Shown: positions 3,550-45,324, numbered from the stretch's first letter. The stretch is DNA of 64,000 nucleotides from Acidimicrobiia bacterium (GCA_035461175.1 DATHVR010000151.1:5971-69970); one strand, 5' to 3'. Notes: a model not told the origin generated them from the letters alone. Translations and numbers: made by a program.

Positions 3550-3594
3550 CTGGCACCATGCTATGAGGCTCGGGCACCCCCAAAGTCAGCCGGC

Positions 3595-4644: not shown

Positions 4645-5186
4645 CAACGTTCCTCTTTCGCATACAGGTCGCGCAGCCGAAGGTAGGTCTGCATCCCCGA
4701 GCGCTGCCGTTCGATCTCGTCGGCTGTCAGTTCGCGAAGGGGTCGGGCCGGGGTGCCGACGGCCAGCGTCCAGGCCGGGATGCGCCGGCCTTCGGGAAGC
4801 ACGGAACCGGCCGCCAGCCAGGCACCTTGCTCCAGCACCGACCCGTTGAGAGCCAACGCTCCGATCCCGACCAGACACTCGTCACCGACCTCGGCGCCAT
4901 GGACGACGGCGGAATGACCCACGGTGGTTCGCGCTCCAATCCGGGCCGGGAAGCCGGTGTCGCAGTGGACCACCACGTTGTCCTGGATATTGGTCTCGGG
5001 GCCTACCTCGACCTGATCCTCCTCGGCGCGCAGCACCGCACCGAAGAGGACGACGGCACCGGCCCCGATCCGCACCGCGCCCCGCACGATGGCATTGGGG
5101 GCAACGAATGCTCCCGGCTCGATGACGGGAGCGGCGATGCCGCTCACTCTTCCAGGCCGATCGACACGTGTCCGCACTCCAGGCAC
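4644..5186 (-). CDS. Gamma-carbonic-anhydrase / hexapeptide-repeat (LbH) family protein
   Basis: Left-handed beta-helix repeats ([15 protein letters not shown]...[12 protein letters not shown]) resemble gamma-CA/PaaY/YrdA proteins. The real start may be the in-frame GTG near 5147. Confidence 0.65.
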
Positions 5187-6745: not shown

Positions 6746-6834
6746 CTTACCCCTTTCCTACCTGCCGTCCTGACTGGGCCGACACGGCGTAAGGCATCAT
6801 CGGCGCTCGAAGAGCCGGACTCAACAGTTACGCC

Positions 6835-9663
6835 TCACATGTACTCGTCCATGGGAGGGCAGGTGCAGACAAGGTTACGGTCTCCTCCGGCGGCATCGAG
6901 CCGTCCGATGGGAGGCCAGTACTTGTCTTGCTCCAACTCCTCGAGCGGGTAGGCGGCCAGCCGGGCCGGATACGGACGATCCCATTCTCCGATCAGGTCG
7001 GCGGCCGGGTGAGGAGCGTTGTGGAGAGGATTGTCGTCCCGGGGCCACTCCCCCGCTTCGATCCGGTCGATCTCTCCCTTGATGGCGATCATCGCCCGGC
7101 AGAACCGGTCGAGTTCGTACAGCGACTCCGACTCGGTCGGCTCGACCATCAGCGTCCCGGCCACGGGGAAGGCAACCGTGGGGGCGTGGAATCCGTAGTC
7201 GGCCAGCCGTTTGGCCACGTCCTCGGCGGTGACACCGGTGCGGTGGGTGATGGCCCTCAGATCGAGGATGCACTCGTGCGCCACCCGACCCCCGGGACCC
7301 GTGTACAGAACCGGGAAGTGAGGATCGAGCCGGGCGGCGACATAGTTCGCCGCCACGATCGCCCCTTCGGTGGCAGCCTTGAGACCCTCGGCACCCATCA
7401 GCCGGATGTACACCCACGGTATGGGCAGGATTCCCGGTGATCCCCAGGGCGCAGCCGAGATCGGCCCGATTCCGGTCTCGGGCCCGGCCTCGGGCGCCAG
7501 TGGGTGATTGGGCAGGAACGGCGCCAGATGGGACATCGCCCCCACCGGGCCGACTCCCGGGCCGCCACCGCCATGGGGGATCGTGAATGTCTTGTGCAGG
7601 TTGAGATGGCCGATGTCGGCCCCGAAGTCCCCCGGCCGGGCCAGGCCGACGAGGGCGTTCAGGTTGGCTCCGTCGACATAGACCTGGCCGCCCCGAGCGT
7701 GGATGATCTCGCACAACTTGACGATCCCGGGCTCGAACACCCCGTGAGTCGACGGATAGGTGATCATGGCCGCGGCCAGGCGTTTCGAGTGGGCGTCGGC
7801 TTTGGCCTCGAGATCCACCAGATCGACGTTGCCGTGATCGTCGGTGGCCACCACTACCACCGCCATCCCGGCCATCGTCGCCGAGGCGGCGTTGGTGCCG
7901 TGGGCAGATTGGGGGATCAGGCAAACCACCCGCTGGTCATCTCCCCGGCTGCGGTGGTAGGCACGGATGGCGAGGAGACCGGTCAGTTCGCCCTGCGAAC
8001 CGGCGTTGGGCTGGAGGGTGATGGCGTCGTAGCCGGTGAGTTCGGCCAGATACTCCTCCAGCTCGGTGATCATCGCCAGATAACCCTCGGCCTGGTCGAG
8101 AGGCACGAAAGGATGGAGCTCGGTGAACTCGGGCCACGTCATCGGGATCATCTCGGTAGTGGCGTTGAGCTTCATCGTGCACGATCCGAGCGGGATCATC
8201 GAACGATCCAGGGCCAGGTCGCGATCGGCCATGCGGCGCAGGTACCGAAGCATCTCGTGCTCGGTCTGAAAGCGGTGGAACATCGGATGCTCGAGGAAGG
8301 GCGTAGTTCGACGTCGATCGGACGGGATGCCATCTGCGGCCCTTTCGTCGTTCTCTCCGCCCCCGAAGGCAGCCAGCACTCCGGAGACCACGGTCGGCGA
8401 TGACGTCTCGTCGATAGAGATCCCGACGCGCGAGTCGTCGACCCGGCGCAGATTGATTCCCCGTTCCCGCGCCGCCGCAATCACCGTGTCGGCCGAGCAC
8501 CGGACGGTGAGGGTGTCGAAGAATGTCTCGTTCTCGACCTCGACCCCCTCGATCATCTCCAGACCTGCCGCCAGCCGGCCCGTTAGTTCGTTGACGCGGT
8601 GAGCGATGCCAGCGAGACCCTCGGGGCCGTGCCACTGGGCGTAGAGGGCGGCCACCACCGCCAGGAGGACCTGAGCCGTGCAGACATTGGAGGTGGCCCG
8701 TTCCCGTCGGATGTGCTGTTCACGAGTTTGCAGGCTGAGGCGGTATCCGGTGCGACCGGCCGGATCTCTGGCCACGCCCACCAGGCGACCCGGGAGGGCC
8801 CTGACATGACCCTCTCGAACGGCGATGAATCCGGCGTGGGGGCCGCCGAAAGCCATCGGCACGCCGAAGCGCTGGGTCGAGCCCACGGCGATGTCGGCTC
8901 CCAGTGCGCCCACCGGCTCCAGCAACACCGAAGCGAGCAGGTCGGTGGCCGCCACGACGATGCCGCCGGCAGCGTGTACGGCCTCGGCGATATTGGCCAG
9001 ATCCCCCAGCAGGCCACTCGAACCGGGATACTGGACGAGGACTCCGACGACGCCCTCCATCTCGTCGAGATGTTCCGCCACGTCGACCACCTCGACCGGG
9101 ATTCCCATCCCTTCGGCCCGGGTCTCCAACACGGCGACGGTCTGTGGATGGCAGTCCCGGTCGATCAGGAAGCGACCTTCGCGGCGGGTGATGCGAGGCG
9201 CCATGGCCATTGCCTCGGCGGCGGCCGTGCCCTCGTCGAGGAGCGACGAATTGGCGATCTCGAGGCCGGTCAGGTCGGCAACCATGGTCTGGAAATTGAG
9301 CAGGACCTCGAGGCGGCCCTGGGAGATCTCAGCCTGATAGGGGGTGTAGGCGGTGTACCAGGCCGGATTCTCGATGACGTTGCGCAGGATCACGGGCGGG
9401 GTGACGGTGCCGTAGTAACCCATCCCGATCAACGACTTGTGGCGCCGGTTGCGTCCGGCATGGCCCCGCAGGACCGCGAGCACCTCCTCCTCGCCGAGCG
9501 CGGCGGGCAGGTCGAGGGGCCGGCGCTCGAGGATGCGGTCGGGTACCGCCTCGTCGATCAGTTCATCGACGGTCTCGACCCCGAGAACGGGCAACACCTG
9601 TTCGAGGTCGTCGGGCTGGAGCCCGAGGTGGCGGTGGACGAATTGCTGGGCGGTCATGGGCAC
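6835..9663 (-). CDS. gcvP: Glycine dehydrogenase (decarboxylating), glycine cleavage system P protein
   Basis: 942-aa single-chain GcvP with typical N-terminus ([12 protein letters not shown]..., [19 protein letters not shown]) and PLP-dependent regions. Confidence 0.95.
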
Positions 9664-9825
9664 TCCATAACTCCGGAACTCCGGAGACCGGTGACATTGT
9701 CACCGCTGTCGAAGCCTCCAGCGGCGCCTCCGTCGGACGGTCCTGGTGCCTGAGAGTTTCCGCCTTGCGGCGTTGCCCCTTCGGCGTCCCGGCTGATGGG
9801 ACTCTCCCGTCCGAGATCCTCAGCT
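9664..9825 (-). promoter_or_regulatory. Glycine riboswitch in the gcvP leader (one clear aptamer plus a degenerate second)
   Basis: Minus-strand sense reads GGGAGAGUCCC...CGCCGAAGGGGCAACGCCGC...AAACUCUCAGGCACCAGGACCG, which matches the glycine aptamer core, followed by CUGGAGGC...CACCGGUCUCCGGAG. Located immediately upstream of the gcvP ATG. Confidence 0.7.
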
Positions 9826-9901
9826 CGCCCCATCTTATCCCCGGGGTGGAGATGACACCGGTGAGATCGACCTCCCGCATCCGGGCCATACACTTGCGCC
9901 G

Positions 9902-10816
9902 ATGGTCAGCCGTCCTCACACTCGACTTCTCTCGACCAGCCATGGCACCAATCGTGAGGCCTTCTCCGTAACTGACTGGGCCCTGTTCCTGACGCTGGTT
10001 CTGATCTGGGGTGGATCGTTCCTCTTCATGGCCATCGGTCTCGACCACTTCCATCCGGGCCTGGTGACGTTCCTGCGGGTCGGATTCGGTGCCGCCACTC
10101 TCGCCCTGATCCCTCGCGCCCGGCACACCCCGATCGCCCAGGAAGATTGGCCCCGGGTGATCGTGCTGGGCGTCATCTGGATCGCCCTCCCACTCACCTT
10201 CTTTCCCATCGCCCAGCAATGGATCAACTCGGCGGTGGCGGGGATGCTCAACGGCGCCATGCCCATCTTCACCGCACTGGTATCGGTCGCCCTCCTGCGT
10301 GAACTGCCGGGCCGTCGCCAGTCCTTCGGCCTGGTGATCGGATTTGCCGGCATCGCCGCCATCTCGATCCCTTCGGCGGGTGGCGAGAGCACAGCGGTGG
10401 TCGGCGTCGCCCTCGTTTTGGCCGCCACCATCTGTTACGCCTTCGCCACCAACATCGTCGCCCCCCTCCAGCAGAAGTACGGGTCGCTGGCCGTGCTCGC
10501 CCGCGTGCAGTGGGTGGCGGTGCTGTTGGTGGTTCCGTATGGAGCGGTGGGACTGGGCCCGTCGGAGTTCGCCTGGTCCTCGTTGTTGGCGGCACTGGCC
10601 GTTGGGGTGCTGGGAACCGGCCTCGCCTTCGTGTTGATGGGCACTCTGGCCGGGCGGGTGGGCGCAACCCGAGCCTCCTTCATCACCTACGTCATCCCGG
10701 TGGTGGCCCTGGTGCTCGGGGTGGTCTTCCGCAGCGACCAGGTGTCACCGATCGCAGTCGTCGGAGTCTTGTTGGTGATCGTCGGAGCCTTTCTCGCCTC
10801 CCGGCGCGAGCTCTAG
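9902..10816 (+). CDS. EamA/DMT-family membrane transporter
   Basis: About 10 predicted TM helices in two EamA-like halves. The true start is probably a GTG/ATG downstream of 9902. Confidence 0.65.
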   Translation: MVSRPHTRLLSTSHGTNREAFSVTDWALFLTLVLIWGGSFLFMAIGLDHFHPGLVTFLRVGFGAATLALIPRARHTPIAQEDWPRVIVLGVIWIALPLTFFPIAQQWINSAVAGMLNGAMPIFTALVSVALLRELPGRRQSFGLVIGFAGIAAISIPSAGGESTAVVGVALVLAATICYAFATNIVAPLQQKYGSLAVLARVQWVAVLLVVPYGAVGLGPSEFAWSSLLAALAVGVLGTGLAFVLMGTLAGRVGATRASFITYVIPVVALVLGVVFRSDQVSPIAVVGVLLVIVGAFLASRREL

Positions 10817-11837: not shown

Positions 11838-12896
11838 TCACCCCACCCCTTCCAGGTCCTCCGCCAGGACTCGGTCCACGTGATGACAGCGCACCGCGTG
11901 TCCGACCGCGACCTCGGCGAGGGGCGGCAGTGTCTCGGCGCAGATCTCGGTGGCGTACCCACATCGTGGCCGGAAGGGACATCCTCGAGGACGGAGGATC
12001 GCCGAGGGGGGAGCGCCCGGGATGGAGAAGAGGGGGGCATCACCAGTTCTCTCGATTCGGGGAAGTGAACGGAGAAGCCCTTGGGTGTAGGGGCTTGCCC
12101 CCTCGGCGAATATGTGTCGGGTGGGTCCGGATTCGAGGAACCGGCCCCCGTACATGACCTGGACCCGGTCGGCGGTGCCTGCCACCAGCCCGAGATCGTG
12201 GGTGATGAGAATCAACGCCGAACCGACCTCTTGCTGGACCTGGCGCATCACCTCCATCACCTGCGCTTGGATGGTGACATCGAGAGCCGTGGTGGGCTCG
12301 TCGGCGATGACGAGCCGGGGCCGGTTGGCCATGGCGATGGCAATGACGATGCGCTGACGCATTCCGCCCGAGAACTCGTGCGGATACTGGTCGATTCTTC
12401 GCCCCGGCTCGGGAATCCCCACCATCTCGAGAAGATCGAGAGCCTCATCACGTGCCTCGTCGCGATCCAGATCCTGGTGCTGGCGGAGCATCTCGGTGAT
12501 CTGGTCTCCCACCGTGAAGACCGGATTGAGGGAGGTCATCGGGTCCTGGAAGATCATCGCCAGATCGGACCCACGGCGACGACGCATCTCCCGCTCGGAT
12601 GCGCCCCGCAACTCGACACCGTCGAAGCGGATCGATCCCGCCACCTGCGCCCGCCTCGGGAGCAGACCCATCAGAGCCAAGCCGGTCACCGACTTGCCCG
12701 AGCCTGACTCTCCCACGATCCCGAGCACCTCCCCGGATGCCACCGAAAAGGAAATGTCCTCGACGGCATGCACGACTCCTTCGTCGGTCGGGAACCTGAC
12801 CGACAGACCCGACACTTCGAGCAGGGTGGTTCGAGGCGGATCGGCCGCCATGCCACTGGCCCGGCCTCCCGGATCGGGCGTCACCTTCCCCGTCAC
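11838..12896 (-). CDS. oppD: Oligopeptide/dipeptide ABC transporter ATP-binding protein
   Basis: Walker A GESGSGKSV, signature FSGGMRQRI, Walker B IADEPTTALD. The start may be the internal MAADPP. Confidence 0.85.
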   Translation of the reverse strand: MTGKVTPDPGGRASGMAADPPRTTLLEVSGLSVRFPTDEGVVHAVEDISFSVASGEVLGIVGESGSGKSVTGLALMGLLPRRAQVAGSIRFDGVELRGASEREMRRRRGSDLAMIFQDPMTSLNPVFTVGDQITEMLRQHQDLDRDEARDEALDLLEMVGIPEPGRRIDQYPHEFSGGMRQRIVIAIAMANRPRLVIADEPTTALDVTIQAQVMEVMRQVQQEVGSALILITHDLGLVAGTADRVQVMYGGRFLESGPTRHIFAEGASPYTQGLLRSLPRIERTGDAPLFSIPGAPPSAILRPRGCPFRPRCGYATEICAETLPPLAEVAVGHAVRCHHVDRVLAEDLEGVG

Positions 12897-17583: not shown

Positions 17584-18052
17584 GCTGCGACGACCTCCGA
17601 TCCCTGATCTGTCCGACTGGAGCGGCCGGCTCGAACGAGAACTGGTGGCATCGGTGCGTCCGACGAAGCGCACGCTGATTCGACCTCAGATCATGGAACG
17701 AGTTCTGCGGATCAGCCGCAGCATCGCCCGGCCCGCCGGACACGGTGTCGCCGCAGTAGCGGCATCACTGGTGGTAGTGACGTCGCTGTCGGTGCCTGCT
17801 CCGGTTCAACGCTCCGCCGTCACGACGCCACCACCTCTGCCGGCACTAGATCAGTCCATCGCGATCATCCCGACACAGTCAGCGGGATTCGTCGCCCTGC
17901 TGCCCCCGGAGGATGCGGCCGCCGTCAGAAGCTCTGACATCCAACTCACCCGGAGCGCATTAACTGAGGCACCGCAGAGCGATGCTCCTGCGGTCCCCAC
18001 GCCGGACGGCGGAGGGTGGGCGGAAGCCACCCTCCGCCCAACGGTCCGCTGA
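17573..18052 (+). CDS. Putative anti-sigma factor (single TM helix)
   Basis: ATG overlaps the sigma gene's 3' end by 11 nt. There is one hydrophobic helix (VAAVAASLVVVTSLSV) and a Pro/Ala-rich extracytoplasmic tail. No motif identifies a specific family. Confidence 0.45.
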   Translation: MPSELRRPPIPDLSDWSGRLERELVASVRPTKRTLIRPQIMERVLRISRSIARPAGHGVAAVAASLVVVTSLSVPAPVQRSAVTTPPPLPALDQSIAIIPTQSAGFVALLPPEDAAAVRSSDIQLTRSALTEAPQSDAPAVPTPDGGGWAEATLRPTVR

Positions 18053-18055
18053 CGG

Positions 18056-18988
18056 CTAGCTGTGACAACCGGGGACGTTGTCCTTGGCGGCGGCCCGACG
18101 CAGGGCCCGAAACATCAGGTGCTGGTCGCCGAGCCGCCGGCGAAGCTCGCGTTCCAGGCCGCCGATCGGGTAGAGGTTCTCGGGCGCCCGGGGATCCTTG
18201 TGGGGGCGGGAGGCGAAACGGGGCAGGGTGGCCGTGACCTGGTCGGCCAGGCGGACCGCGGCGGCGATGTCGACGTCGGCCGCCACCTCGCAGCGCACCA
18301 GGCCCTCGGCGGGGCCCTGGCCGCGGGCCAGCCGCACGTACCACGAGTAGCGCGACCAGGCCCCGGTGGTCAGGAAGAGCGGCGTGCGCCGTCCCACCGC
18401 CAGCCCGTACTTGACGTCCCACAGCTCGGGCGGGAGGTACTCGACGTGCTCACGCTTGATGTATCCCACCGCTCGCTCGACGTGGCGGCGGTGGCTGAGG
18501 GGGCCGTCCACGACCACCAGCGCCACCCCATCCTGGGAAGCGGCTACGACGCCTTCCAGCTCGCCCATCCGTTGCTGGATCCCGAGCCACAACTCCTCCG
18601 GTGTCTGGCCATAGGTAGCCCGGACCTCGTAGCTTCCGCACCGGGTCTCCACGGCCTCGACACCGTGGGCGGCGGTGAAGAGTCCCCGTTCTACCGCCGT
18701 TTCGACCACGGTGGCGTGGCCGTTGGCCCGGACGGCACCGGCGGCGTAAGTGGCGGCCAGACCCAGCCCGGGACGACCCTCGCTCTGTTCGATCCACAGG
18801 TTGGCGTCGACCCGGCGAACCCCGTCGACGAACAGCACATCGTCGAGAGCCGCCGAATCCGGCGCCATGCCGCGCCACTCCCCCGCCGGAACCTCGACAC
18901 CCACGTCGACCCGGGAGCTGGCGTCCTCGAGGTCGGGGTCGACCGGCATCCCGTATTCGGGCGACCACTGGGCCACGGTGAATCTCAT
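18056..18988 (-). CDS. Hypothetical protein directly downstream of sbcDC; possible NurA-like nuclease
   Basis: Taking the MRFTVAQWSPEY start, the protein has two DG-containing beta-strand motifs (LFVDGV at ~55 and ALVVVDGPL at ~161) with acidic residues between them. This spacing is reminiscent of NurA, but it has not been verified. The plus-strand ORF across the same region is Gly/Arg/His-rich junk. Confidence 0.45.
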   Translation of the reverse strand: MRFTVAQWSPEYGMPVDPDLEDASSRVDVGVEVPAGEWRGMAPDSAALDDVLFVDGVRRVDANLWIEQSEGRPGLGLAATYAAGAVRANGHATVVETAVERGLFTAAHGVEAVETRCGSYEVRATYGQTPEELWLGIQQRMGELEGVVAASQDGVALVVVDGPLSHRRHVERAVGYIKREHVEYLPPELWDVKYGLAVGRRTPLFLTTGAWSRYSWYVRLARGQGPAEGLVRCEVAADVDIAAAVRLADQVTATLPRFASRPHKDPRAPENLYPIGGLERELRRRLGDQHLMFRALRRAAAKDNVPGCHS

Positions 18989-19021
18989 ACCGCCCCACCC
19001 ACCCACCGGAATCTCATATCC

Positions 19022-19074
19022 GAGGTCGGAGGTCGGAGGTCAGAATCAGCCAGTCGGAAGTCGGAAGTCGGAAG
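19022..19074. repeat. Two short tandem heptamer arrays, (GAGGTCG)x3 and (GTCGGAA)x3, in the sbcC/nurA-like intergenic region
   Basis: Seen directly in the DNA. On the minus-strand mRNA they read as CCUCCGA and CUUCCGA repeats, i.e. anti-Shine-Dalgarno-like. Confidence 0.6.
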
Positions 19075-19144
19075 CCAGACTGGCGTGCAGATAGCGACCG
19101 AGACGGGTTGATGCTGCACGTCGGTTTCCGAAAACAGGCTGTCA

Positions 19145-21511
19145 TCAGGTTTCGATTCTCTCGATCGTGCTGCCCCCGGGGCCGGGTCGGATCTCGAAGC
19201 GGACCGGCACCTGTTCCCCCAGGTCCTTGACGTGGGTGACCAGGCCCACCACCCGGCCGCTTGCCGCCAGCTCGGTGACGACGGCCGTGACGGTCTCGAG
19301 CGTCTCGGCGTCGAGGCTGCCGAATCCCTCGTCGAGGAAGATCGCCTCCAGACGGCTGCCGCCCAGTCGCGACATGTTGGACAGCTGCTCGCCGAGGGAG
19401 AGGGCCAGGGCCAACGAGACCAGGAAGGTCTCTCCGCCTGAAAGGCTGCGCACGGAGCGCCGTTCGTCGGCATTGCGGTGGTCGATGACTTCGATGCTGC
19501 GGTCGTGCAGCGCCAACGAGTAGGCACCCCGAGTCAGGTCGTCGAGCAGCGAGTTGGCCCCCTCGACCAGGGTGGCCAGGGCTTCGGCCAGAAACCAGCC
19601 GACGAAGTTGCCGGCCCGAAGATGATTGGCGAGAGCCGAGGCCACCGCCCCGCTCCGGGAGAACCTGGCCAGATCTGCCTCCAGCGTCTCCCGCTGGGAG
19701 CGCCGTTCGCGCACCCGATCGAGATCGGCGGCGGCGGTGGCACAGGCGGCGGCCAGCCGGGACGAGGCGGCTCCGGACCCGCCCACTCCGAGTTCTTCCA
19801 GCTTCGCCGCCAGCCGTGCCCGTTGCTCCTCGAGGTCGGCCTGGGCCAGCTTGGCCTGTTCCTCGCAGGATTCCACCCTGGCGTCGAGCAGCTGGGCCTG
19901 TTCCCGGGCCCATTCCGCCAGTTCGGACCAGGCGTCGTCGAGGGCATCCCGTCCCGCCGCCGGAGGCCCGAGGGCGGCCACGCCATCTCGCGCCGCCGAG
20001 TAATCATCCCACGCCTGACGCTCGCGAGTTTCCAGGGTGGTCAGGCCGGCCCGGGCGTCGACCACCCTTCGCCGGGCCTCCTTCAGAGCATTCTCCAGGA
20101 CGGCGGCTTCCGCATCGAGCCGGCTCCGTTCATCCAGCAGGCCCTTGAGCTCGGGCTCGCCGGGGGCATCGCCCAGACGCCGTCCCAGGTCATCGATCGT
20201 TTCGACACAGGCGGCGTGGGTGGCGCCCGCCTCAGCCCGGGCGTGTTCGGCTCGGCGCAGAACCGACTCTGCTTCGGCGACGGAACCCTCGGCCGAGCCG
20301 ACGGCCGCCTTCAACTCGTCCAGGTCGACCGGCGAATCGTCCGGCTCCTCCTCGAGAGGACGGTGGCACACCGGGCAGGGATCGCCGGCGTGGAGGCCGA
20401 CGGCGAGAGCATGGGCGGCGTGGCGGGTGCGCGCCTCCTCCCAGGCAGCAGCCGCCCCGTCTCGACCCGACCGTGCCTGAGCGACGGTCTCGGTGGCCGA
20501 TGCCACCTCCTGATCGAGACCGGCGAGGTCGATGGCCTCCCGCTTCTTCTCGGACTCACTCAGTTGCTGTCGCATCTGGAGCATCGCTTCGAGTTCCGGA
20601 CGTGACGGCGTCCCGGCGGCGGCTTCGACGGCCTTCTCGACGGCCTCCATCGCCTGGCCCTCGTCGGCCTGGGCCTGGCTGAGTCGCTCGCGGGCAACCT
20701 TGAGATCCTCCGCCAGCCGCCCGACCGAATCGGGAACCCGGACCTGGGCCACCTGTTTCTGTTGTTCCTGAACCGCCTTCAGCTCCTCGATCCGTTGCCG
20801 GACTTCGTTCTGAGCCGCCTGGATCTGCTCCTCGGCGTGGCCGACCGGCCCCACCTGGGCCTCGAGTGTGGCCAGACGCCGGGCGGTCTGGTCCTCGGCC
20901 TCGGCGGTGGCGTCGGCAAGGTGGTCGAGTTGAGTCCGGGCCGACTCCCCCAGCGCCTGGGCGGTGCGCTGCCGCTCCACCGCCAGGCGGCGCACCTCGT
21001 CGAGAACTCCCATGTCGAGCAGGGCCTTGACCAGCGCCTGCTGGCCGGCCGGGGTGTCGTGGAGGAAGGCGGCGAACTCGCCCTGGGGCAAGACGACCGA
21101 GCGATTGAAGTGGTCGAGCCCGAGCCCGAGAAGTTGCTCGACGTGGCGGCCTACCTCGTCGGCTCCGGAAGCGAGCACCGCTCCCCCACTCTCGAGACGG
21201 GCCTCGGCCACGGTGGCACCGCCCCGGGGATTCCGGCGCACCACCCGGGCGGCGGTGTAGGGAACCCCTTCGACGGTGAACTCGAACAGGACCCGGGCCT
21301 CGGCGGCCCCGAGGGAGATGACGGGCTCCACCGCCCGGCCTCCGTAACGGGCCACCCTTCCATACAGGGCAAACGTGATGGCATCGATCACCGAACTCTT
21401 GCCGCTGCCGGTGGGGCCGGTGAGGGCGAAGAGGTCGAGCCCACCGAAGTCGATCTCGGTGGCCGACCGGAAAGGTGCGAACCCGGCCATCTCGAGGCGT
21501 TCAGGCTTCAT
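19145..21511 (-). CDS. sbcC: SbcC/Rad50-family double-strand-break-repair ATPase
   Basis: N-terminal Walker A (LTGPTGSGKSS), a long coiled coil, a central CxxC zinc hook (DPCPVCHRPLEEE), and C-terminal signature and D-loop motifs (SLSGGETFLVSLALALS...IFLDEGFGSLD). Confidence 0.9.
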   Translation of the reverse strand: MKPERLEMAGFAPFRSATEIDFGGLDLFALTGPTGSGKSSVIDAITFALYGRVARYGGRAVEPVISLGAAEARVLFEFTVEGVPYTAARVVRRNPRGGATVAEARLESGGAVLASGADEVGRHVEQLLGLGLDHFNRSVVLPQGEFAAFLHDTPAGQQALVKALLDMGVLDEVRRLAVERQRTAQALGESARTQLDHLADATAEAEDQTARRLATLEAQVGPVGHAEEQIQAAQNEVRQRIEELKAVQEQQKQVAQVRVPDSVGRLAEDLKVARERLSQAQADEGQAMEAVEKAVEAAAGTPSRPELEAMLQMRQQLSESEKKREAIDLAGLDQEVASATETVAQARSGRDGAAAAWEEARTRHAAHALAVGLHAGDPCPVCHRPLEEEPDDSPVDLDELKAAVGSAEGSVAEAESVLRRAEHARAEAGATHAACVETIDDLGRRLGDAPGEPELKGLLDERSRLDAEAAVLENALKEARRRVVDARAGLTTLETRERQAWDDYSAARDGVAALGPPAAGRDALDDAWSELAEWAREQAQLLDARVESCEEQAKLAQADLEEQRARLAAKLEELGVGGSGAASSRLAAACATAAADLDRVRERRSQRETLEADLARFSRSGAVASALANHLRAGNFVGWFLAEALATLVEGANSLLDDLTRGAYSLALHDRSIEVIDHRNADERRSVRSLSGGETFLVSLALALSLGEQLSNMSRLGGSRLEAIFLDEGFGSLDAETLETVTAVVTELAASGRVVGLVTHVKDLGEQVPVRFEIRPGPGGSTIERIET

Positions 21512-22637
21512 GGGCCTCCTCGACCAGGTCCTCGAACAGCTTCACGACCGCCTCGTCGAAGGCGTCTACCTCGTTGAGGTATTCGGTGAGCAGCTCGGAA
21601 TGGGAGCGCCCGCTCCGATCGGGCCGCTCCCCGGCCTGGTCCTTCCGGCGCCGGGGGTCAATCACCACCTCGACTGCCTGTGGGAGCATCTCCCGGACCG
21701 TGTCGGCGATGCCCACCCGCACCGGCTCGTCGAGGACCACCCGGACGTAGTCGGATTCGGGAATCTCGGCGGCGGCCGCCTCGACCTGGGCCAGGGTCCC
21801 CGACACGGTCCGCAGCCTCCTTCCCCGGCTCAGCGGGCGGAAATCGACCTTGGAGGGTTGCCCGGGCTCGGCCTCGACCAACAGGACACCCTTGCGATCG
21901 TCCTCTTCACCGAAGTCGAGCTGGATCGGCGAACCCGAGTACCACACCGGGGCACCCGCCGGCAGCTTCTGATGGCGGTGCAGGTGCCCGAGGGCGACGT
22001 AGGACAGGCTGGTGGGGAACGCCTGGGAGGGAATCGAGTAGTCGAACACCGTATGAGCCGCCCGCTCCCCACCGCCCACCTCGCCGCCGTGGACCATGAC
22101 GTGGCCCACCACCACGTTGACGTCGTCGGCGGACAGGTCCTGGCACAGAGCCTCGATGATGGCCGACATGCGGTCGACGTACTTGCCGCCCTGGCGGTCG
22201 GCATCGAGGTCCATCAGATCGGCCGCCGAAACGATGGCGCGCTGGGAGACGAACGGAATCATCGCCACCCGGGCCGGTTCCACCGGCCGCACCACGCCGC
22301 CCCGGTCGGGAGCCGCCACCGTGCTGACACTTGTCACCCGCCCCAGTTCGAGTAGAGGAGCCACCGCCTCCAGACGCCGGGGATGGTCGTGGTTGCCCGC
22401 CACCATCACCACCGGTGCCACCTGGGCCAGTTGCATCAGGGTGCGATACACCAGTCGCTCCGCCTCGGGGGGCGGGCTGGAGATGTCGAACTGGTCGCCG
22501 GCCACCAGCACCAGATCCACCGCTTCGTCGGCGGCGATCCCGGCCATCTCGTCGAGGACCTCGGTTTGCTCCTCGACACGGCTGCGCCCGCGGATGGTAC
22601 GGCCGACATGCCAGTCGGCGGTGTGGAGAATCTTCAC
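21501..22637 (-). CDS. sbcD: SbcD/Mre11-family nuclease (calcineurin-like phosphoesterase)
   Basis: MKILHTADWHVG, LVAGDQFD, GNHDH and GHLH phosphoesterase motifs. Overlaps sbcC by 11 nt. Confidence 0.9.
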   Translation of the reverse strand: MKILHTADWHVGRTIRGRSRVEEQTEVLDEMAGIAADEAVDLVLVAGDQFDISSPPPEAERLVYRTLMQLAQVAPVVMVAGNHDHPRRLEAVAPLLELGRVTSVSTVAAPDRGGVVRPVEPARVAMIPFVSQRAIVSAADLMDLDADRQGGKYVDRMSAIIEALCQDLSADDVNVVVGHVMVHGGEVGGGERAAHTVFDYSIPSQAFPTSLSYVALGHLHRHQKLPAGAPVWYSGSPIQLDFGEEDDRKGVLLVEAEPGQPSKVDFRPLSRGRRLRTVSGTLAQVEAAAAEIPESDYVRVVLDEPVRVGIADTVREMLPQAVEVVIDPRRRKDQAGERPDRSGRSHSELLTEYLNEVDAFDEAVVKLFEDLVEEAHEA

Positions 22638-22690
22638 TGCTCCGAGACTAGGTCGGGGGTGTGACAGTTCCCGGCGTTTGCCGCCCCCGC

Positions 22691-22750
22691 AACCGTTCTG
22701 TGGGCCGGAAAGCGCGCCAGAACCGTCATTTTCCGACCCACAGAACGGAT
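22691..22750. promoter_or_regulatory. Long imperfect inverted repeat (16-nt arms, 24-nt spacer) in the divergent sbcD/serpin promoter region
   Basis: CCGTTCTGTGGGCCGG...(24 nt)...CCGACCCACAGAACGG. The arms are reverse complements with one mismatch. Confidence 0.4.
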
Positions 22751-22795
22751 CCGTGCCCCTTTGGCGGGAACCCGCCCGCCCACCGCCGACGTCAG

Positions 22796-24076
22796 ATGGG
22801 CATGAAGCGTGTGCCCTCCGTCTTCGCCGCCCTCGCCCTGGTAGCTACCGCTTGCGGCACCGGGACGACCCCTACCTTCGACTCCGAACCCATCACCGAA
22901 CCCACCGAGACCGCTCCCCCGGGGCCGCCCCGGACCCTCGCTGTCTCGGTGTCGCGGACCGATCCCGATCCGGCGGCGCCGGTCGCCCAGCTCGTCACCG
23001 GGTTCAACGACGCCGGCTTTGAGTTGCTGGGGCGCCAGGGGACCGAGAACTTCGTCTTCAGCCCCCTCAGCATCGGCCACGCCCTCCTCATGGCGCGAGG
23101 AGCTGCCGACGACCCCACCGGCCGGGCGATCGATGCCAGGTTCGATCTTCCCGAAGACCGGGCTGCCCACCAGGCCTGGAACGCCCTCGATCAGCAACTG
23201 GGTCAGGCGACCGCCGATCAGGACGAGATGGAGGTCACGATCGCCGACCGGATCTGGCCCCGGATCGGTCTGGAGCCGGAACAGGACTGGATCGACCTGC
23301 TGGCGGCCGAGCACGGCGCCTCGGTGGAGACTCTGGACCTGTCCGGTGACCCCACCGGGAGCCGGAAGCACATCAACGAATGGGTCTCCCAACAGACTCA
23401 GGGCCTCATCCCCGACCTCCTGCCAGACGGATTCATCACGCCCCAGACCCTGTTGGTGCTGACCGACGCCGTCTACTTCGAGGCCCGCTGGCAGACGCCG
23501 TTCGGCAAGTACGGCACCGTGAGTGAAGATTTCACGCTCCTGGACGGGAGCACGATCCAGGTCGAATACATGCGGGAACTGGAACTGCTGGACCGCCGCG
23601 GCGTCGGGGACGGCTTCGTCGCCGCGGAGATCCCCTATGTGGGCGGGGAGTTCTCGATGCTGCTGATCGTGCCCGACCGGGACCGGTTCACCGAGATCCG
23701 CGATTCCCTCGACCAGGGGCTGGTAGACACCATCGACCGCACCTTCGAGGAGGGGCCATTCGAACTCCTGGTTCCGAAATGGGAGACAACCACCAACCTC
23801 GATCTGCTCCCGTGGCTCGAAGAGGCGGGCGTAGCCCCCGGAAGCTATCCCGGCATCGACCCGAGCGCCTTCCTGGCCGGAGCCGTCCATGGCGCCGACA
23901 TCGCGGTGGATGAGGAGGGGACCGTGGCGGCGGCCGCCACCGGACTCGGCTTCAACGAATCGGCCGGGGCTATGCCGGAACTGACCATCGCCGCCGACCG
24001 GCCCTTCCTCTACCTGATCCGCCACCGTCCCAGCGGAGCGGTCTTGTTCGCCGGCCAGGTGACCGACCCGCGCTAG
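22796..24076 (+). CDS. Serpin (serine protease inhibitor) family lipoprotein
   Basis: Lipoprotein signal MGMKRVPSVFAALALVATAC, then serpin motifs NFVFSPLSIGHALLMA, the hinge/RCL region (EEGTVAAAATG...) and C-terminal ADRPFLYLIRHRPSGAVLFAGQV. Confidence 0.85.
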   Translation: MGMKRVPSVFAALALVATACGTGTTPTFDSEPITEPTETAPPGPPRTLAVSVSRTDPDPAAPVAQLVTGFNDAGFELLGRQGTENFVFSPLSIGHALLMARGAADDPTGRAIDARFDLPEDRAAHQAWNALDQQLGQATADQDEMEVTIADRIWPRIGLEPEQDWIDLLAAEHGASVETLDLSGDPTGSRKHINEWVSQQTQGLIPDLLPDGFITPQTLLVLTDAVYFEARWQTPFGKYGTVSEDFTLLDGSTIQVEYMRELELLDRRGVGDGFVAAEIPYVGGEFSMLLIVPDRDRFTEIRDSLDQGLVDTIDRTFEEGPFELLVPKWETTTNLDLLPWLEEAGVAPGSYPGIDPSAFLAGAVHGADIAVDEEGTVAAAATGLGFNESAGAMPELTIAADRPFLYLIRHRPSGAVLFAGQVTDPR

Positions 24077-24411
24077 CTCTCTCCCGCCCGGTAGACCCTG
24101 ACCTCCACCCTCTCCAACGTCACCAGGCCGTCGCCGATCATCCCCTCCAGGGCGGGGAGGACTGCCTCGATCTTCTCAGAGGCGTCCACACACTCGATCA
24201 CGATCGGCAGGTCCTCCGATAGGCGCAGGATGTGAGCGGCATGGAGGCGACTCGACTTGCCGAAGCCCTCGATCCCGCGCAGGACGGTCGCTCCCGCCAG
24301 ACCCTCCTTGCGCATCAACTCGACTATCGCCTGATACAGCGGCCGTCCGTCGTAGGTATCGGACTCGCCGATGAATATCCGCAGCAACCGGGCCTGGCTG
24401 GTGTTCTCCAT
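24073..24411 (-). CDS. DUF190 (PII-like) protein, fluoride-module associated
   Basis: 112 aa with the conserved ...FIGESDTYDGRPLYQAIVELMRKEGLAGATVLRGIEGFGK core. Directly downstream of two crcB genes. Confidence 0.7.
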   Translation of the reverse strand: MENTSQARLLRIFIGESDTYDGRPLYQAIVELMRKEGLAGATVLRGIEGFGKSSRLHAAHILRLSEDLPIVIECVDASEKIEAVLPALEGMIGDGLVTLERVEVRVYRAGES

Positions 24412-24419
24412 GTGCTCTC

Positions 24420-24773
24420 CTATCCGTTCGTGAGGCTATACCCGAGGGCGGCAAGGGCGACGCCACCGACGAGGCCACCCAGCAGGTTGATGAAGGCGAG
24501 CGGGCGCAAGCGCACCATTCCGATGCGCAGCGTCTCGACCATCCAGGTCGAGTAGGTGGTGAATCCGCCCAGGAAGCCGCCGAGGCCGATCACCCACGGA
24601 GACGTAGCACCACCGGCTCCGGCCACCAGTCCAAGCATGAATGCTCCACTCAGATTGACGAGGATGGTCCCGGCCGGAAACCCGGCCCCGGCCCGCTCCT
24701 GGACGAAACCCGAGAGGATATATCGCGCCACGGCCCCCACTCCTCCGGCCAGCGACAGGATGACCAGGCTCAC
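24420..24773 (-). CDS. crcB: Fluoride exporter CrcB/Fluc, second paralog
   Basis: 4-TM CrcB fold with GTILVNLSGAFMLG and GFLGGFTTYSTW motifs. GTG start overlaps the upstream crcB stop (GTGA). Confidence 0.75.
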   Translation of the reverse strand: MSLVILSLAGGVGAVARYILSGFVQERAGAGFPAGTILVNLSGAFMLGLVAGAGGATSPWVIGLGGFLGGFTTYSTWMVETLRIGMVRLRPLAFINLLGGLVGGVALAALGYSLTNG

Positions 24774-25189
24774 GTGGCCCCTCCGCCCAGCCGCAACCCG
24801 AGTTGTGCCGACGCCAGGCCACCGACGAGCGAGGCCAGGAGGTAGGCGAGCGCCGGACCGACACGGGCGGCTTCGACCAGCATGATGAGGTCGACGCTGA
24901 ATGCCGAGAAGGTGGTGAAGGACCCCAGGAGCCCGATCCCCCAGAACTGGACCGACCATCGCCGGTCGGGAGCCGTCCGCTCTCGCCGGGACACGAGATA
25001 GCCGAGGAGGAAGGAACCGATCAGATTGACGGCCAGGACCGATGCGGGAAACCCATCGGCCGGATGCGATATCAGCTCTCCGATTCCGACCCGGGCGGCC
25101 GAACCGAGAACCCCGCCGCCGAGCACGGCGACAAGCGACCGAAGCGGCTCTCGACTGCGTTGCGATCGGGGATGGGGATGGCTCGACAC
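24770..25189 (-). CDS. crcB: Fluoride exporter CrcB/Fluc, first paralog
   Basis: Motifs LAVNLIGSFLLG and GLLGSFTTFSAFS. Start assigned to the GTG at 25187-25189, which has a GGAAGGA Shine-Dalgarno 6 nt upstream. The longer ATG-start version would overlap the riboswitch. Confidence 0.7.
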   Translation of the reverse strand: MSSHPHPRSQRSREPLRSLVAVLGGGVLGSAARVGIGELISHPADGFPASVLAVNLIGSFLLGYLVSRRERTAPDRRWSVQFWGIGLLGSFTTFSAFSVDLIMLVEAARVGPALAYLLASLVGGLASAQLGLRLGGGAT

Positions 25190-25199
25190 GGTTCCTTCC

Positions 25200-25275
25200 G
25201 TCTGTCCAGGAGCCATCAGCCCTTGTCGGGCGCTTCACGGCGAGCCCCATCGCCGGGGATCATCCTAGTTCTACG
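25200..25275 (-). promoter_or_regulatory. Fluoride riboswitch (crcB motif)
   Basis: Minus-strand sense reads GGAUGAUCCCCGGCGAUGGGGCUCGCCGUGAAGCGCCCGACAAGGGCUGAUGGCUCCUGG. This matches the conserved GGCGAUGGNGUUCGCC...AAC(C)GCC...GCUAAUGACUCCUAC architecture, directly 5' of crcB. Confidence 0.7.
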
Positions 25276-25281
25276 AGCGGG

Positions 25282-26961
25282 TCACAATCCCTCGAAGGGG
25301 TCGTCGGGGACGTCGCCCCGGCCCGCCCCGGCAGCCACCTCGGATGGGCGGGTGGCCCAGGCCGGGAAGGGGAACTCGGCCACGACCGGCACGGGTAGTT
25401 CCGGCTGGCTGACCAGCATCGTTCCCGGCTTGATGATGGTGGCCCGCTGACGATGGACCTGGGGCAGAAACCCGTACTCCTCCCGGCTGGCCTCGGCCGA
25501 GTCGAGTCGGCCCACCACCCGGATCGAGGAGTTGGCGATGATGCGGCGCTCAACCTCGGAGGCGGTCTGCTGGGCGCCGATCAGGATCACACCCAGGCTG
25601 CGACCGCGTTCGGCCACATCGAGCAGGATCTCCTTGATCGGGCTCGACCCGTCCCGGGGGGCGTACTTGTTCAACTCGTCGAGCACCACGAACAGGAGAT
25701 CGTCGTCACCCTGGCGACCCTGCCGTTCCTTCTGCTCGAAGGCACGCCGCACCGTGACCCCGACGACGAATCGCTTGGCCCGGTCGTTGAGATTGTGGAG
25801 GTCGACCACCGTGACCTGGTTGTTCTCGAGGGCCACCCGGTGTCGCTCCGGGTCGGGGAGATTGCCCCGGATCAACCGCTCGACGTGACGTACCGCCGAG
25901 TTGAGCCGGCGGACGAAGGCGTTGATGGTCCCCCGCCCGATGGCAGTCCCGGCCCAGACCGGGCCGTCGTCCTCGCTCAGGACCTTCTCGGTGATCAACT
26001 CGACCAGGGCGCGGAAAGTGCGGACCGTGGTCCCGTCGATCACCACCGATCCGTCGTCGGTGGCCTGGGCCCGCTTCAACTGGGCCATGACCGAATACAC
26101 CACCATGGTGTACTGGGCCCGGTCGTCCTCGGCGTCGGCGAACAGGAACGGAAGCAGGTCGTCGTGGCAGAACTCGCCCAGGGACCAGCAGAACGAGGTC
26201 ACGTCGGACCGGGAGTGGACGTCGGCCCGCAGGGTGGCCGAGTCGGGGCGGGGCGGGGCGTAGAGGCCGACCGAGCGGAAGGGCTCGGCCGGCAGCCCCA
26301 GCGACCCGTAGCGGGCGACCTGGTCGGCGTCGAGGAGACCGTTGGGGCGGTCGAGATGGAGCAGATCCTCGCCCTTGACGTTGAAGATCAGAGCCTTGGT
26401 GTTTATCGCTCCCGCCCCCAACACCCCGCCGGTGAACAGGGAATGGAGCAGAAAGGTGGCGTAGGTGGTCTTCGTGGCCACCCCGGACACACCCGAGATG
26501 TTGACGTGGGCGCCCCGCTCCCCGTTGACGAACTCGAAGTTGACGAACAGCGGCTCGTCGTCGCGGGTCATCCCGATCACCAAGCGGCGCTCCATCCGGT
26601 CGAAGAAGAGCGCCTTGTCGCGCTCCTCCCCCTCGGCGCGGGCCACCGGCTGGCCGGGCCGGGGCGGGACGAACACCTCGGGTTCGAAGCGGGTGGCGGT
26701 GATGCGGGCGGATTCGGCCACCTCGGCAGGAAGGACGCCATCGGAGATGAGGAAGACGTCCGAGTCGAAGCGTGCTCCCTCGTGGCGGGCCCGGACCTGA
26801 GACACCATCCCGTAGACCCGCACCGCCTCGCCCGTGGGGAGCACCCTTTCCAGGGCGACGACGTCGTCGAGCTGGAGGTACTGACCCTCCGCCACCGCCA
26901 CCCAGAAGTCGAGCGGGGTGGCGTCTTCGGTTCCGATCACCCGGCCGACCATCTCTGCCAT
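25282..26961 (-). CDS. HerA-like ATPase (HAS-barrel plus DUF87/FtsK-HerA P-loop NTPase) with atypical Walker A
   Basis: From MAEMVGRVIGTEDATPLDFWVAVAEGQYLQLDDVV (HAS-barrel) onward. Walker A-like NISGVSGVATKTT (deviant), Walker B LLFVVLDELNKY, and arginine finger and C-terminal regions typical of HerA. The upstream 105 codons of the ORF are judged non-coding. Confidence 0.65.
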   Translation of the reverse strand: MAEMVGRVIGTEDATPLDFWVAVAEGQYLQLDDVVALERVLPTGEAVRVYGMVSQVRARHEGARFDSDVFLISDGVLPAEVAESARITATRFEPEVFVPPRPGQPVARAEGEERDKALFFDRMERRLVIGMTRDDEPLFVNFEFVNGERGAHVNISGVSGVATKTTYATFLLHSLFTGGVLGAGAINTKALIFNVKGEDLLHLDRPNGLLDADQVARYGSLGLPAEPFRSVGLYAPPRPDSATLRADVHSRSDVTSFCWSLGEFCHDDLLPFLFADAEDDRAQYTMVVYSVMAQLKRAQATDDGSVVIDGTTVRTFRALVELITEKVLSEDDGPVWAGTAIGRGTINAFVRRLNSAVRHVERLIRGNLPDPERHRVALENNQVTVVDLHNLNDRAKRFVVGVTVRRAFEQKERQGRQGDDDLLFVVLDELNKYAPRDGSSPIKEILLDVAERGRSLGVILIGAQQTASEVERRIIANSSIRVVGRLDSAEASREEYGFLPQVHRQRATIIKPGTMLVSQPELPVPVVAEFPFPAWATRPSEVAAGAGRGDVPDDPFEGL

Positions 26962-27142
26962 CGGCGGCGAGGGTAGTGGGCGGCTGTGACATCGACCGAA
27001 GCGATCGATCCACCGCCGGGCGTTCTGTGATGGTGGGCGGCTGGCCCGGATTCCCTCCCGGCACCTCCTGCCCGGAATCCCTGGTCGCGCCGGAGGCACG
27101 ACCCATTGCCCGAAGCCCCGGTTCGGAGTCCGCTCGGGTACG

Positions 27143-28330
27143 GTGACCCGGTTGAGCTTCGTCGCATTTCCGTTCAAGTCCGAGGACCCGGCCGTCGCCG
27201 TCGCCAATCTCGAGGTAGCGGCGCGCCATCCGCGTGTCCGACGGGTGCTGGCGGTGGGCTCGGGTGCGGACGCCACCTACCGAAGCCTGGCCGAGTTCGC
27301 CCCCGCTCTCGAGCGTCGCACCGGCACCCCGGTCGAGGTGATCGTCCAGGAGCGGATCGGGGACCGCCGCCCCGGCAAGGGCGACGGCATGAACACTGCC
27401 CTGCGGCGTTTCCGCGACTCCGACCACCAGCGCATCCACTTCTACGACGCCGACATCACCAACTTCGACGCCACCTGGATCGACGGGGCCGAGGCGGCGG
27501 CCGACCGCCACTTCCCCGTCGTTCGTCACTATTTCCCCCGCGCCTCCACCGACGCCATGATCACCTGGTTGGTGACCCGGCCGATCTTCGCCCTGGCTCA
27601 CCCCGATTCGATCCTGTGGGAGATCCGCCAGCCGTTGGGTGGCGAGCTGCTCCTCACCCGGGACATCGCCGTCGCCCTGGCGGATGACCCCCGGGTGGTG
27701 GAACGCTCCGACTGGGGGATCGACACCGTCCTCACGTATGCCACCGTCGCCCTCGGCGAACCGGTCTACGAGCACTACGTGGCCGAGGGCAAACAACACG
27801 CCCTCTACCGCTCCCTGGGCGATATCCGCCAGATGCTCGTCGAGTGCTTCGAGGCGGCGGCCGCAGTCGCCGCCCTCCCCTCCCCCGGCCGGCCCCGCCA
27901 CGAGGTGGCGCCTCCGGCCACGGCCGGGCCCGCCATCGCCCACAAGGTGGGATTCGACATCGAGAGCACCATCCACCTGCTGATCGCCCCGTGGCCGCCG
28001 GAGGCGGTCTCGGCGGCGGCCGAACTTCCTGCCGACCTCTCCCGGCCCCTGCTCGCCAACCTGGTCCGACCCACCTTTTCGTTCATGGACGGCGCCCGCT
28101 GGCGGAGGACGCTTCAGGTGCTGCTGGCGCGCTACGAGTCGACACCGGGCTGGGAAGAAGTGCTGTTCCGGCTGTGGGTCGCCCGGGTGCTCGCCTACGC
28201 CACCGGCGAGGCTCTATATGGCCATGCAGCAGCGATGGCAGTGCTGGAGGAACAGGTGCGCCGCTGTGCCCGTCCCAGGACAGACCGATCAGGGAATGGA
28301 CAACAGGGCGACGGCCAGCACTCCCAGTGA
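27143..28330 (+). CDS. GT-A-fold glycosyltransferase, glucosyl-/mannosyl-3-phosphoglycerate-synthase-like
   Basis: RPGKGDGMNTAL and FYDADITNF resemble the GpgS/MpgS GT81 motifs RPGKGEA and DxD. GTG start. Confidence 0.45.
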   Translation: MTRLSFVAFPFKSEDPAVAVANLEVAARHPRVRRVLAVGSGADATYRSLAEFAPALERRTGTPVEVIVQERIGDRRPGKGDGMNTALRRFRDSDHQRIHFYDADITNFDATWIDGAEAAADRHFPVVRHYFPRASTDAMITWLVTRPIFALAHPDSILWEIRQPLGGELLLTRDIAVALADDPRVVERSDWGIDTVLTYATVALGEPVYEHYVAEGKQHALYRSLGDIRQMLVECFEAAAAVAALPSPGRPRHEVAPPATAGPAIAHKVGFDIESTIHLLIAPWPPEAVSAAAELPADLSRPLLANLVRPTFSFMDGARWRRTLQVLLARYESTPGWEEVLFRLWVARVLAYATGEALYGHAAAMAVLEEQVRRCARPRTDRSGNGQQGDGQHSQ

Positions 28331-45293: not shown

Positions 45294-45324
45294 AGATGTC
45301 ACACCCCCCGGGTACGTTGCGGGC

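Follow-up and report, generated by a model that had tools for sequence, protein, structure and literature searches.

In archaea of the Sulfolobus type, herA, mre11, rad50 and nurA follow one another in that order within a single operon. A published listing is consistent with this order (PMC4351679), the archaeal operon is co-transcribed and inducible by ultraviolet light (PMC2288612, PMC5448004), and a HerA hexamer and a NurA dimer acting with Mre11–Rad50 constitute the accepted model of resection (PMC3326311). The biochemistry of homologues has been described (PMC9960219, PMC3326311). In bacteria, the literature treats herA and nurA as a two-gene operon of Deinococcus–Thermus (PMC9960219, PMC12977600), and for Deinococcus radiodurans any connection with SbcCD was said to await discovery (PMC4663267). 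A nurA–hepA(herA)–sbcD–sbcC cluster is present in Oceanithermus profundus, and its authors noted the archaeal-like architecture of double-strand-break repair genes (PMC5448004). Here we analyse a 64-kb stretch of an Acidimicrobiia metagenome-assembled genome (MAG; DATHVR010000151.1; hereafter, the window, with positions counted from its first nucleotide), which carries genes for HerA, SbcD, SbcC and NurA in the archaeal order, with an unrelated block of genes between herA and sbcD.

Gene order across Acidimicrobiia

Across the class Acidimicrobiia, herA–sbcD–sbcC–nurA is the standard gene order. We fetched 80 loci of 20 kb, one genome per species, encoding NurA proteins with 55–80 per cent identity; all are from Acidimicrobiia or from evidently mislabelled MAGs, and the window proteins were mapped onto them by tblastn. 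The genes sbcD, sbcC and nurA are contiguous in every locus with a long enough contig (80 of 80 for sbcC–nurA among such loci), and HerA orthologues with 70–90 per cent identity are encoded in 66 loci. The distance between herA and sbcD could be scored in 63 loci, and in these herA lies upstream, on the same strand and within 6 kb. In 41 of the 63 the gap is shorter than 200 bp (typically ~66 bp) and all four genes are contiguous in the archaeal order; in the remaining 22 it measures from 0.2 to at least 6 kb. Because of this contiguity, and because herA is upstream across the relatives, we regard herA–sbcD–sbcC–nurA as the ancestral order of the class, which is split in the window by a 2.6-kb insertion. 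An initial reading of the window from its sequence alone (hereafter, the sequence-only reading) had called the association of a nurA-like gene with sbcDC unusual for a bacterium. The arrangement is not peculiar to this genome, as it is general in the class, and a bacterial cluster of herA and nurA with sbcDC has already been noted for O. profundus (PMC5448004).

To place the locus more widely, we searched 1.84 billion cluster representatives with a NurA profile and retrieved 1,639 clusters at E ≤ 1e-3, including 423 at E ≤ 1e-30. Genomic contexts of distant homologues were taken from cluster members; one representative (P0270) belongs to a rare metagenomic lineage and offered little context. 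The order herA–(insert)–sbcD–sbcC–nurA was found in two distant loci (L082 and L083; NurA 44–46 per cent identical), and the order nurA–herA–sbcD–sbcC, that of O. profundus, in two others (L084 and L086; NurA 35–37 per cent identical). The occurrence of the latter order in other bacteria argues for assembly and rearrangement of the cluster within bacteria.

Some of these distant loci have features of their own. In L082, which also has a neighbouring gene for the actinobacterial marker DUF3097, sbcD and sbcC are annotated as one product of 1,222 amino acids (aa) at 4316–7984 (Metallophos plus SMC_N/AAA_23/SbcC_Walker_B), and the tblastn matches of both parts share a reading frame; either a natural SbcD–SbcC fusion or an artefact of sequencing could account for this. 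L085, an 8-kb contig from a MAG with the label Pleurocapsa, has nurA, then a small gene of the Avd/23S-rRNA-IVP family and then herA in two pieces (1921–5148), and no sbcCD.

Identity of the four proteins

The window ATPase matches D. radiodurans HerA (PDB 7f6d_B) with an E-value of 2.7e-152 over residues 2–547. Its Walker A motif (GVATKT) aligns with K175/T176 of the D. radiodurans protein and its Walker B motif (VVLDELNKYAP) with D487/E488, residues whose roles have been described (PMC9960219). Residues 2–302 align with D. radiodurans HerA 12–335, a region that includes the HAS barrel of that protein. By homology, this ATPase and D. radiodurans HerA are orthologues.

For the protein encoded downstream of sbcC, phmmer searches of PDB sequences matched D. 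radiodurans NurA (7f6d_H; E = 5e-19) and Thermotoga maritima TM1739 (1zup; E = 2e-9). An AlphaFold2 model built on 22 homologues (predicted local distance difference test score [pLDDT] 82.6, predicted template modelling score [pTM] 0.81) has a predicted RNase-H-like fold. Foldseek ranked 7f6d_G first (E = 9e-17) and 1zup second (E = 1e-15) for this model, followed by other RNase-H-like folds, including TdpAB and the PIWI domain of Argonaute. In the numbering of the 316-aa open reading frame (ORF), residues D61 (FVDGVRR), E151 and D167 (VVDGPL) are invariant in the 22 sequences and their motifs align with those of D. radiodurans NurA; by homology, these three would be the acidic catalytic residues. 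An HKDPRAP motif is also invariant in the family alignment. The alignment of homologues supports a start at the ATG at 18988 (MRFTV). Judged by sequence and predicted structure, the resulting 310-aa protein is a bacterial-type NurA nuclease, and an NCBI entry with 100 per cent identity to it is annotated as a hypothetical protein.

The two remaining proteins can be assigned with family models and sequence motifs. SbcD exceeds the cut-off of TIGR00619 (177 versus 77.65 bits), contains a calcineurin-like phosphoesterase domain (Metallophos; E = 9e-15) and matches Escherichia coli SbcD (6s6v_A) with E = 3e-27. The archaeal Mre11 model scores 55 bits, compared to the 177 bits of TIGR00619, and the match to archaeal Mre11 is confined to the N-terminal 97 aa. 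In SbcC, direct reading reveals a Walker A motif (GPTGSGKS), an ABC-type signature (LSGGE), a Walker B motif (FLDEGF) and, in the middle of the protein, a CPVC zinc hook; matches to AAA_23 and SbcC_Walker_B are above threshold. The match to E. coli SbcC has an E-value of 3e-37, versus 8e-14 for archaeal Rad50. SbcC falls under the cut-off of the full-length model TIGR00618 (245 versus 478.5 bits), and its coiled coil is much shorter, since the protein has 788 aa as opposed to ~1040. Overall, SbcC and SbcD are far closer to the SbcCD proteins of E. coli and T. maritima than to archaeal Mre11/Rad50.

Since SbcC and SbcD match E. coli SbcCD (6s6v) best, and HerA and NurA their counterparts in D. 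radiodurans, all four are, by homology, of bacterial type, and only the gene order is archaeal. The sequence-only reading had described the cluster as archaeal-style, which is thus correct for the order of the genes and incorrect for the proteins. It had also recognised a HerA-like ATPase and a protein with NurA-like spacing of two DG motifs; the comparisons above bear out both assignments, with both DG motifs present in NurA. All the elements that it listed for the cluster are found at essentially the positions it gave, on the minus strand except for the serpin gene. Two of its figures need correction. The coordinates 18988–18056 encode 310 aa, and the 316 aa reported for them correspond to a longer ORF that begins at the GTG at 19006. 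Similarly, herA was placed ~6 kb away, which is its distance from nurA; herA and sbcD are 2.6 kb apart.

Promoter-like motifs and the inserted block

A motif of the form TGTCR-N11-TAnnnT precedes both herA and sbcD. Its −10 hexamer ends 8 nucleotides (nt) before the ATG of herA and 7 nt before the GTG of sbcD. The motif matches the consensus of the mycobacterial RecA-independent DNA-damage promoter (RecA-NDp), tTGTCRgtg-8nt-TAnnnT (PMC5656591), and PafBC acts through this promoter (PMC6789036, PMC8223512). The strict motif has three matches in the window, compared to 0.41 expected, each located 6–8 nt before a start codon; when the window was shuffled 100 times, three of the shuffles reached three matches as well. 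The strict motif is matched 63 times in the 80 relatives (1.4 Mb, both strands), and 53 of these matches lie directly before herA (20 of 60 loci) or sbcD (33 of 70). None was found before sbcC (0 of 68) or nurA (0 of 80). When one position and the spacing were relaxed, the motif was present before herA in 43 of 60 loci and before sbcD in 51 of 70.

In every motif-bearing locus a start codon lies 5–9 nt past the −10 hexamer, and this is either the start of the gene itself or that of a 7-codon upstream ORF (uORF). Given this short distance, the mRNAs would be leaderless. The 7-codon ORF occurs in 18 related loci, ~50 nt upstream of sbcD, and its stop codon shares 4 nt with the sbcD start codon (ATGA or TTGA); it looks like a leaderless mini-ORF that is translationally coupled to sbcD. 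These ORFs (in loci L008–L015, L021, L023, L025, L028, L030, L032, L034, L046, L049 and L058) begin 7–8 nt past the hexamer and encode, for example, MTRSVPP or MKEAWLT before the stop.

From the position and conservation of the motif we infer that herA and sbcD–sbcC–nurA are two separately promoted, co-regulated, damage-inducible units. If herA and sbcD each have a promoter of their own, this would be why the herA–sbcD junction accepts insertions and sbcD–sbcC–nurA does not. A scan of positions 17800–27300 for the sigma-70 consensus returned no promoter, and no minus-strand terminator was found there, a result that is uninformative at 68 per cent GC; a search for TGTCGGTG returned only primer noise.

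Two of the ten strict matches that are not associated with herA or sbcD lie 6 nt before genes for DUF222 plus HNH endonuclease proteins (L037, ~12081–12102, minus strand; L047, ~4459–4480, minus strand). This DUF222/HNH family (REP13E12) is part of the RecA-independent damage-induced set in Mycobacterium tuberculosis. In L047, and also in L029 (4772–4847), the DUF222 plus HNH gene sits inside the herA–sbcD gap.

The third copy of the motif in the window (45297–45318, plus strand) is located 6 nt before the ATG of a 441-aa ORF (45325–46650). This ORF matches no Pfam or NCBIfam family and has 33 homologues, all from Acidimicrobiia or unnamed organisms. Orthologues with 36–56 per cent identity in L087, L088 and L089 have the motif 6–7 nt before their ATG (~2970–3003), so that it is present in four of four genomes. 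An AlphaFold2 model (pLDDT 76) predicts long coiled coils and an alpha/beta core with invariant D261, E275 and K277, and the best fold matches in the PDB are archaeal Hjc Holliday-junction resolvases (probability 0.99, E = 5e-3). On the strength of this model, the protein is a candidate PD-(D/E)xK nuclease in the same putative damage regulon.

The block that separates herA from sbcD in the window (roughly 22680–25280) consists of a fluoride-resistance cassette, made up of a fluoride riboswitch, two crcB genes and a DUF190 gene, and of a serpin gene (Table 1). The riboswitch is its first element and starts 18 nt past the herA stop; crcB1 begins 11 nt after the aptamer, as in a riboswitch–crcB module. 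A TAGGAT hexamer just ahead of the riboswitch could serve as its own −10 element. The serpin gene, whose stop region overlaps that of the converging DUF190 gene by 4 nt, likely starts at 22796 or 22802, where the signal peptide begins, rather than at 22661; because this signal peptide is of the lipoprotein type, the serpin is probably exported. The 158-bp divergent region from the sbcD promoter motif to the serpin start holds an inverted repeat, which might act as an operator or insulate against antisense read-through.

Table 1. Features of the herA–nurA region of the window.
Feature	Position	Strand	Description
Promoter-like motif before herA	26970-26991	-	TGTCACAG-N8-TACCCT
herA	25282-26961	-	Bacterial-type HerA hexameric ATPase/translocase (by homology), 559 aa
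Fluoride riboswitch aptamer	25200-25263	-	Rfam RF01734, 48 bits vs gathering score 34, E 1e-12, full-length
crcB1 (fluoride channel)	24770-25189	-	Pfam CRCB, E 6e-22
crcB2 (fluoride channel)	24420-24773	-	Pfam CRCB, E 4e-17; GTG start overlaps crcB1 stop
DUF190 gene	24073-24411	-	PF02641, E 4e-42; frequent crcB partner
Serpin gene	22796-24076	+	PF00079, E 1e-67; lipoprotein-type signal peptide MKRVPSVFAALALVATAC
Inverted repeat	22688-22753	none	Arms 24 nt, 88 per cent complementary, loop 18 nt
Promoter-like motif before sbcD	22645-22666	-	TGTCACAC-N8-TAGTCT
sbcD	21501-22637	-	Mre11-family nuclease subunit, 378 aa; 11-nt overlap with sbcC
sbcC	19145-21511	-	Rad50-family ATPase, 788 aa
sbcC–nurA spacer, expanded, 156 nt	18985-19144	-	7-nt tandem repeats and duplicated nurA 5' end
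nurA	18056-18988	-	Bacterial-type NurA RNase-H-like nuclease (by homology and model), 310 aa

Neither crcB nor DUF190 was detected in any of the 80 related loci by tblastn mapping of the window proteins, and a second serpin gene at the herA–sbcD junction was found in only one (L017, 3265–3915, plus strand). Because the fluoride genes are in none of the loci and the serpin gene is in a single one, the 2.6-kb block looks like a recent lineage-specific insertion; the opposite orientation of the serpin gene in L017, relative to the window, suggests independent events. In L003, which among the relatives shares the most synteny with the window on both flanks, herA and sbcD are 153 bp apart; similarity between this locus and the window breaks off immediately past the herA stop and sets in again ~15 nt ahead of the sbcD promoter motif. 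The sequence-only reading had suspected that the crcB/DUF190/serpin genes were an insertion and had asked whether herA abuts sbcD where they are absent; the short gaps in 41 of the 63 scored relatives agree with this suspicion. Around the 2.6-kb insert, a search for a transposase, for terminal inverted repeats and for duplicated target sites gave no convincing result.

Other relatives with a wide gap carry different genes at the same junction, which we identified with an amino-acid composition filter followed by Pfam. These genes are mutually unrelated, and encode a phosphotransferase system permease with an SIS protein, a pyridine-nucleotide disulphide oxidoreductase, mannosyl-3-phosphoglycerate synthase, a Na/Pi transporter with DUF819, a pyridoxal-phosphate-dependent decarboxylase with a DsbA-like protein and a hydrolase and, in L017, the serpin.

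The spacer between sbcC and nurA is also altered in the window, where it is 156 nt long; in relatives it usually measures 2–11 nt, and its length falls between −1 and 26 nt in 56 of 63. The window spacer includes 7-nt tandem repeats (19022–19074), and a duplication of the nurA 5' end creates a 10-codon uORF (19017–18985; MRFRWVGGAV) whose TGA overlaps the nurA ATG. In the spacer of L001, a close relative, the same ~33-nt unit is repeated in tandem three to four times (9900–10025).

On the other side of the cluster, a mannosylglycerate synthase gene (27143–28330, plus strand; MGS_GT plus MGS_C, E = 6e-99) diverges from herA, as it does in ~42 of the 80 relatives. Several loci in which the cluster is split have instead a gene for mannosyl-3-phosphoglycerate synthase, immediately upstream of sbcD and on the opposite strand. 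The repair cluster thus has compatible-solute genes as persistent neighbours. Together with HIT genes, mannosylglycerate synthase genes form a chromosomal context that is shared across the class, and not a variable island. Elsewhere in the window, a glycine riboswitch aptamer is present at 9728–9819 on the minus strand (RF00504; 66 bits versus a gathering score of 32).

Function and comparison with known systems

The observed protein identities, intact catalytic motifs, linkage, insertion and position-specific conservation of the motif belong to a locus that is probably an Acidimicrobiia module for the processing of double-strand-break ends, organised in two transcription units and split in the window by an insertion. 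For the physical cooperation of SbcCD with HerA–NurA and for the polarity of resection, we infer by analogy with the D. radiodurans and archaeal enzymes. Under this model, DNA damage would activate two RecA-independent (PafBC-type) promoters, one before herA and one before sbcD, and the start codons 5–9 nt after the −10 hexamers would give leaderless mRNAs. SbcCD, dimerised through its zinc hook, would recognise and clip blocked or hairpin ends. The HerA hexamer would feed the duplex into the NurA dimer, with the 5' strand being degraded and a 3' tail left for RecA. Separate promoters would let the junction take in foreign genes without uncoupling the regulation, as may have happened in the 22 of 63 relatives with insertions. 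We propose more tentatively, and with slightly less than even confidence, that SbcCD and HerA–NurA form a dedicated long-range end-resection machine in a PafBC regulon, assembled within bacteria into the archaeal order, in Acidimicrobiia and in the other bacteria with nurA–herA–sbcD–sbcC clusters.

Several observations weigh against the end-processing interpretation. Promoter function, like damage induction and leaderless starts, is deduced from sequence. In neither of the distant loci L082 and L083 did we find the motif upstream of the cluster, and the regulation may hence be confined to part of the class. Pfam returned nothing significant for either the 664-aa herA ORF or the trimmed 559-aa HerA, with only a weak HAS-barrel match (E = 0.023). 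For NurA, the sequence-only reading had pointed to PF09376 and to the fold as checks; the fold agrees, with 7f6d and 1zup as top matches, whereas the Pfam score remains under the gathering score (18.5 versus 21 bits; E = 1.5e-3). Precomputed PF09376 matches are present in several close NurA homologues. Because of the 156-nt spacer, the tight coupling of nurA to sbcC is weaker in the window than in most relatives. The role of bacterial HerA–NurA in the cell is itself in dispute: in D. radiodurans and Thermus, mutants have modest or even enhanced resistance to damage (PMC9960219), and a 2026 study of archaeal HerA–NurA questions its role in resection and raises an antiviral one (PMC12977600).

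That antiviral role bears on the other function that the sequence-only reading had considered, a defence-type HerA system that borrows SbcCD. Such an anti-phage system would be built on HerA (as in Sir2–HerA or DUF4297–HerA), with NurA as effector and SbcCD as helper. PADLOC reports partial matches of the C-terminal half of HerA to defence HerA models and mad8 (E = 2e-11 to 4e-2), along with weak matches of SbcC to LmuB, mad3 and PbeC. However, the HerA models of PADLOC match only the C-terminal ATPase part, with E-values of 2e-7 or weaker, and the defence HerA structures 8xau, 8ziq and 9c1m match only the ATPase core (E = 4e-4 or weaker), as opposed to the full-length match to the D. radiodurans repair HerA at 1e-152. 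NurA has no PADLOC match, the locus encodes neither Sir2 nor DUF4297 nor any other defence effector, and the promoter motif is one common to a regulon of DNA-damage type. Because HerA is orthologous to the repair protein, NurA lacks a PADLOC match, no effector is encoded and the synteny is class-wide rather than that of a variable island, we consider a defence system improbable, and a resection machine that joins HerA–NurA to SbcCD is the best-supported reading of the locus.

The gene order, which is identical to that of the Sulfolobus-type operon, could alternatively reflect horizontal transfer of the whole four-gene operon from archaea, and an archaeal origin of bacterial herA–nurA is assumed in the literature (PMC12977600, PMC5448004). 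Against such a transfer stand the SbcD and SbcC scores reported above, which favour the bacterial over the archaeal families, and the matches of HerA and NurA to the bacterial type (D. radiodurans, T. maritima), with no archaeal NurA or HerA structure among the sequence hits. Other bacteria (L084 and L086) hold the same genes as nurA–herA–sbcD–sbcC. With bacterial-type proteins and a different order in other bacteria, acquisition from archaea is quite improbable. Finally, five unrelated genes separate herA from sbcD in the window and 3 per cent of its shuffles reproduce three motif matches, as would be expected if the neighbourhood were coincidental and the motif matches were due to chance. 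The linkage is nevertheless conserved in at least 63 species-level genomes, with NurA identity down to 44 per cent, and 53 of 63 motif matches in 1.4 Mb fall at two positions, with none before sbcC or nurA. This conservation leaves chance with a negligible probability and, in our view, excludes it.

Bacterial HerA–NurA has been studied almost exclusively in Deinococcus and Thermus, where the two genes form their own operon and the mutant phenotypes are puzzling. That a whole class retains herA, sbcD, sbcC and nurA together, with sbcC and nurA nearly always adjacent, argues strongly at the genomic level for a single bacterial pathway in which both complexes take part. If the dedicated resection machine proposed above exists, the clade would be the natural bacterial system in which to study whether and how a Mre11–Rad50-type complex passes DNA ends to HerA–NurA. 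The paired RecA-NDp-like promoters would extend the mycobacterial regulon to a deep-branching actinobacterial class and would explain the insertions at the junction.

In a limited literature search, we found no paper that describes the Acidimicrobiia arrangement or its promoters, and four known systems come close to it. The archaeal operon of Sulfolobus, Pyrococcus and Thermococcus, whose genes are essential, has the same four components in the same gene order, but the Acidimicrobiia proteins are of bacterial type, and the Acidimicrobiia cluster has two apparent promoters instead of one and a RecA-NDp-like motif. D. radiodurans and Thermus (7f6d, 7wrw) have orthologous HerA and NurA proteins, with which the Walker, DG and HKDxRAP motifs are shared; there, nurA directly precedes herA without a link to sbcCD, whereas in Acidimicrobiia nurA follows sbcC and herA precedes sbcD. 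In the mycobacterial PafBC/RecA-NDp regulon, TGTCR-N3-N8-TAnnnT likewise stands directly before the starts of repair genes, and also of DUF222/HNH genes. The consensus is a mycobacterial one, and in Acidimicrobiia TGTCR is mostly followed by CAC or CCC, and not by GTG. O. profundus also clusters bacterial HerA and NurA with SbcD and SbcC, but in the order nurA–herA–sbcD–sbcC, whereas in Acidimicrobiia nurA is at the 3' end, behind sbcC; the report on that genome included neither promoter analysis nor class-wide conservation. The parts, their biochemistry and the existence of a bacterial four-gene cluster were therefore already known, and the arrangement, its conservation across a class and the paired RecA-NDp-like motifs are new here.

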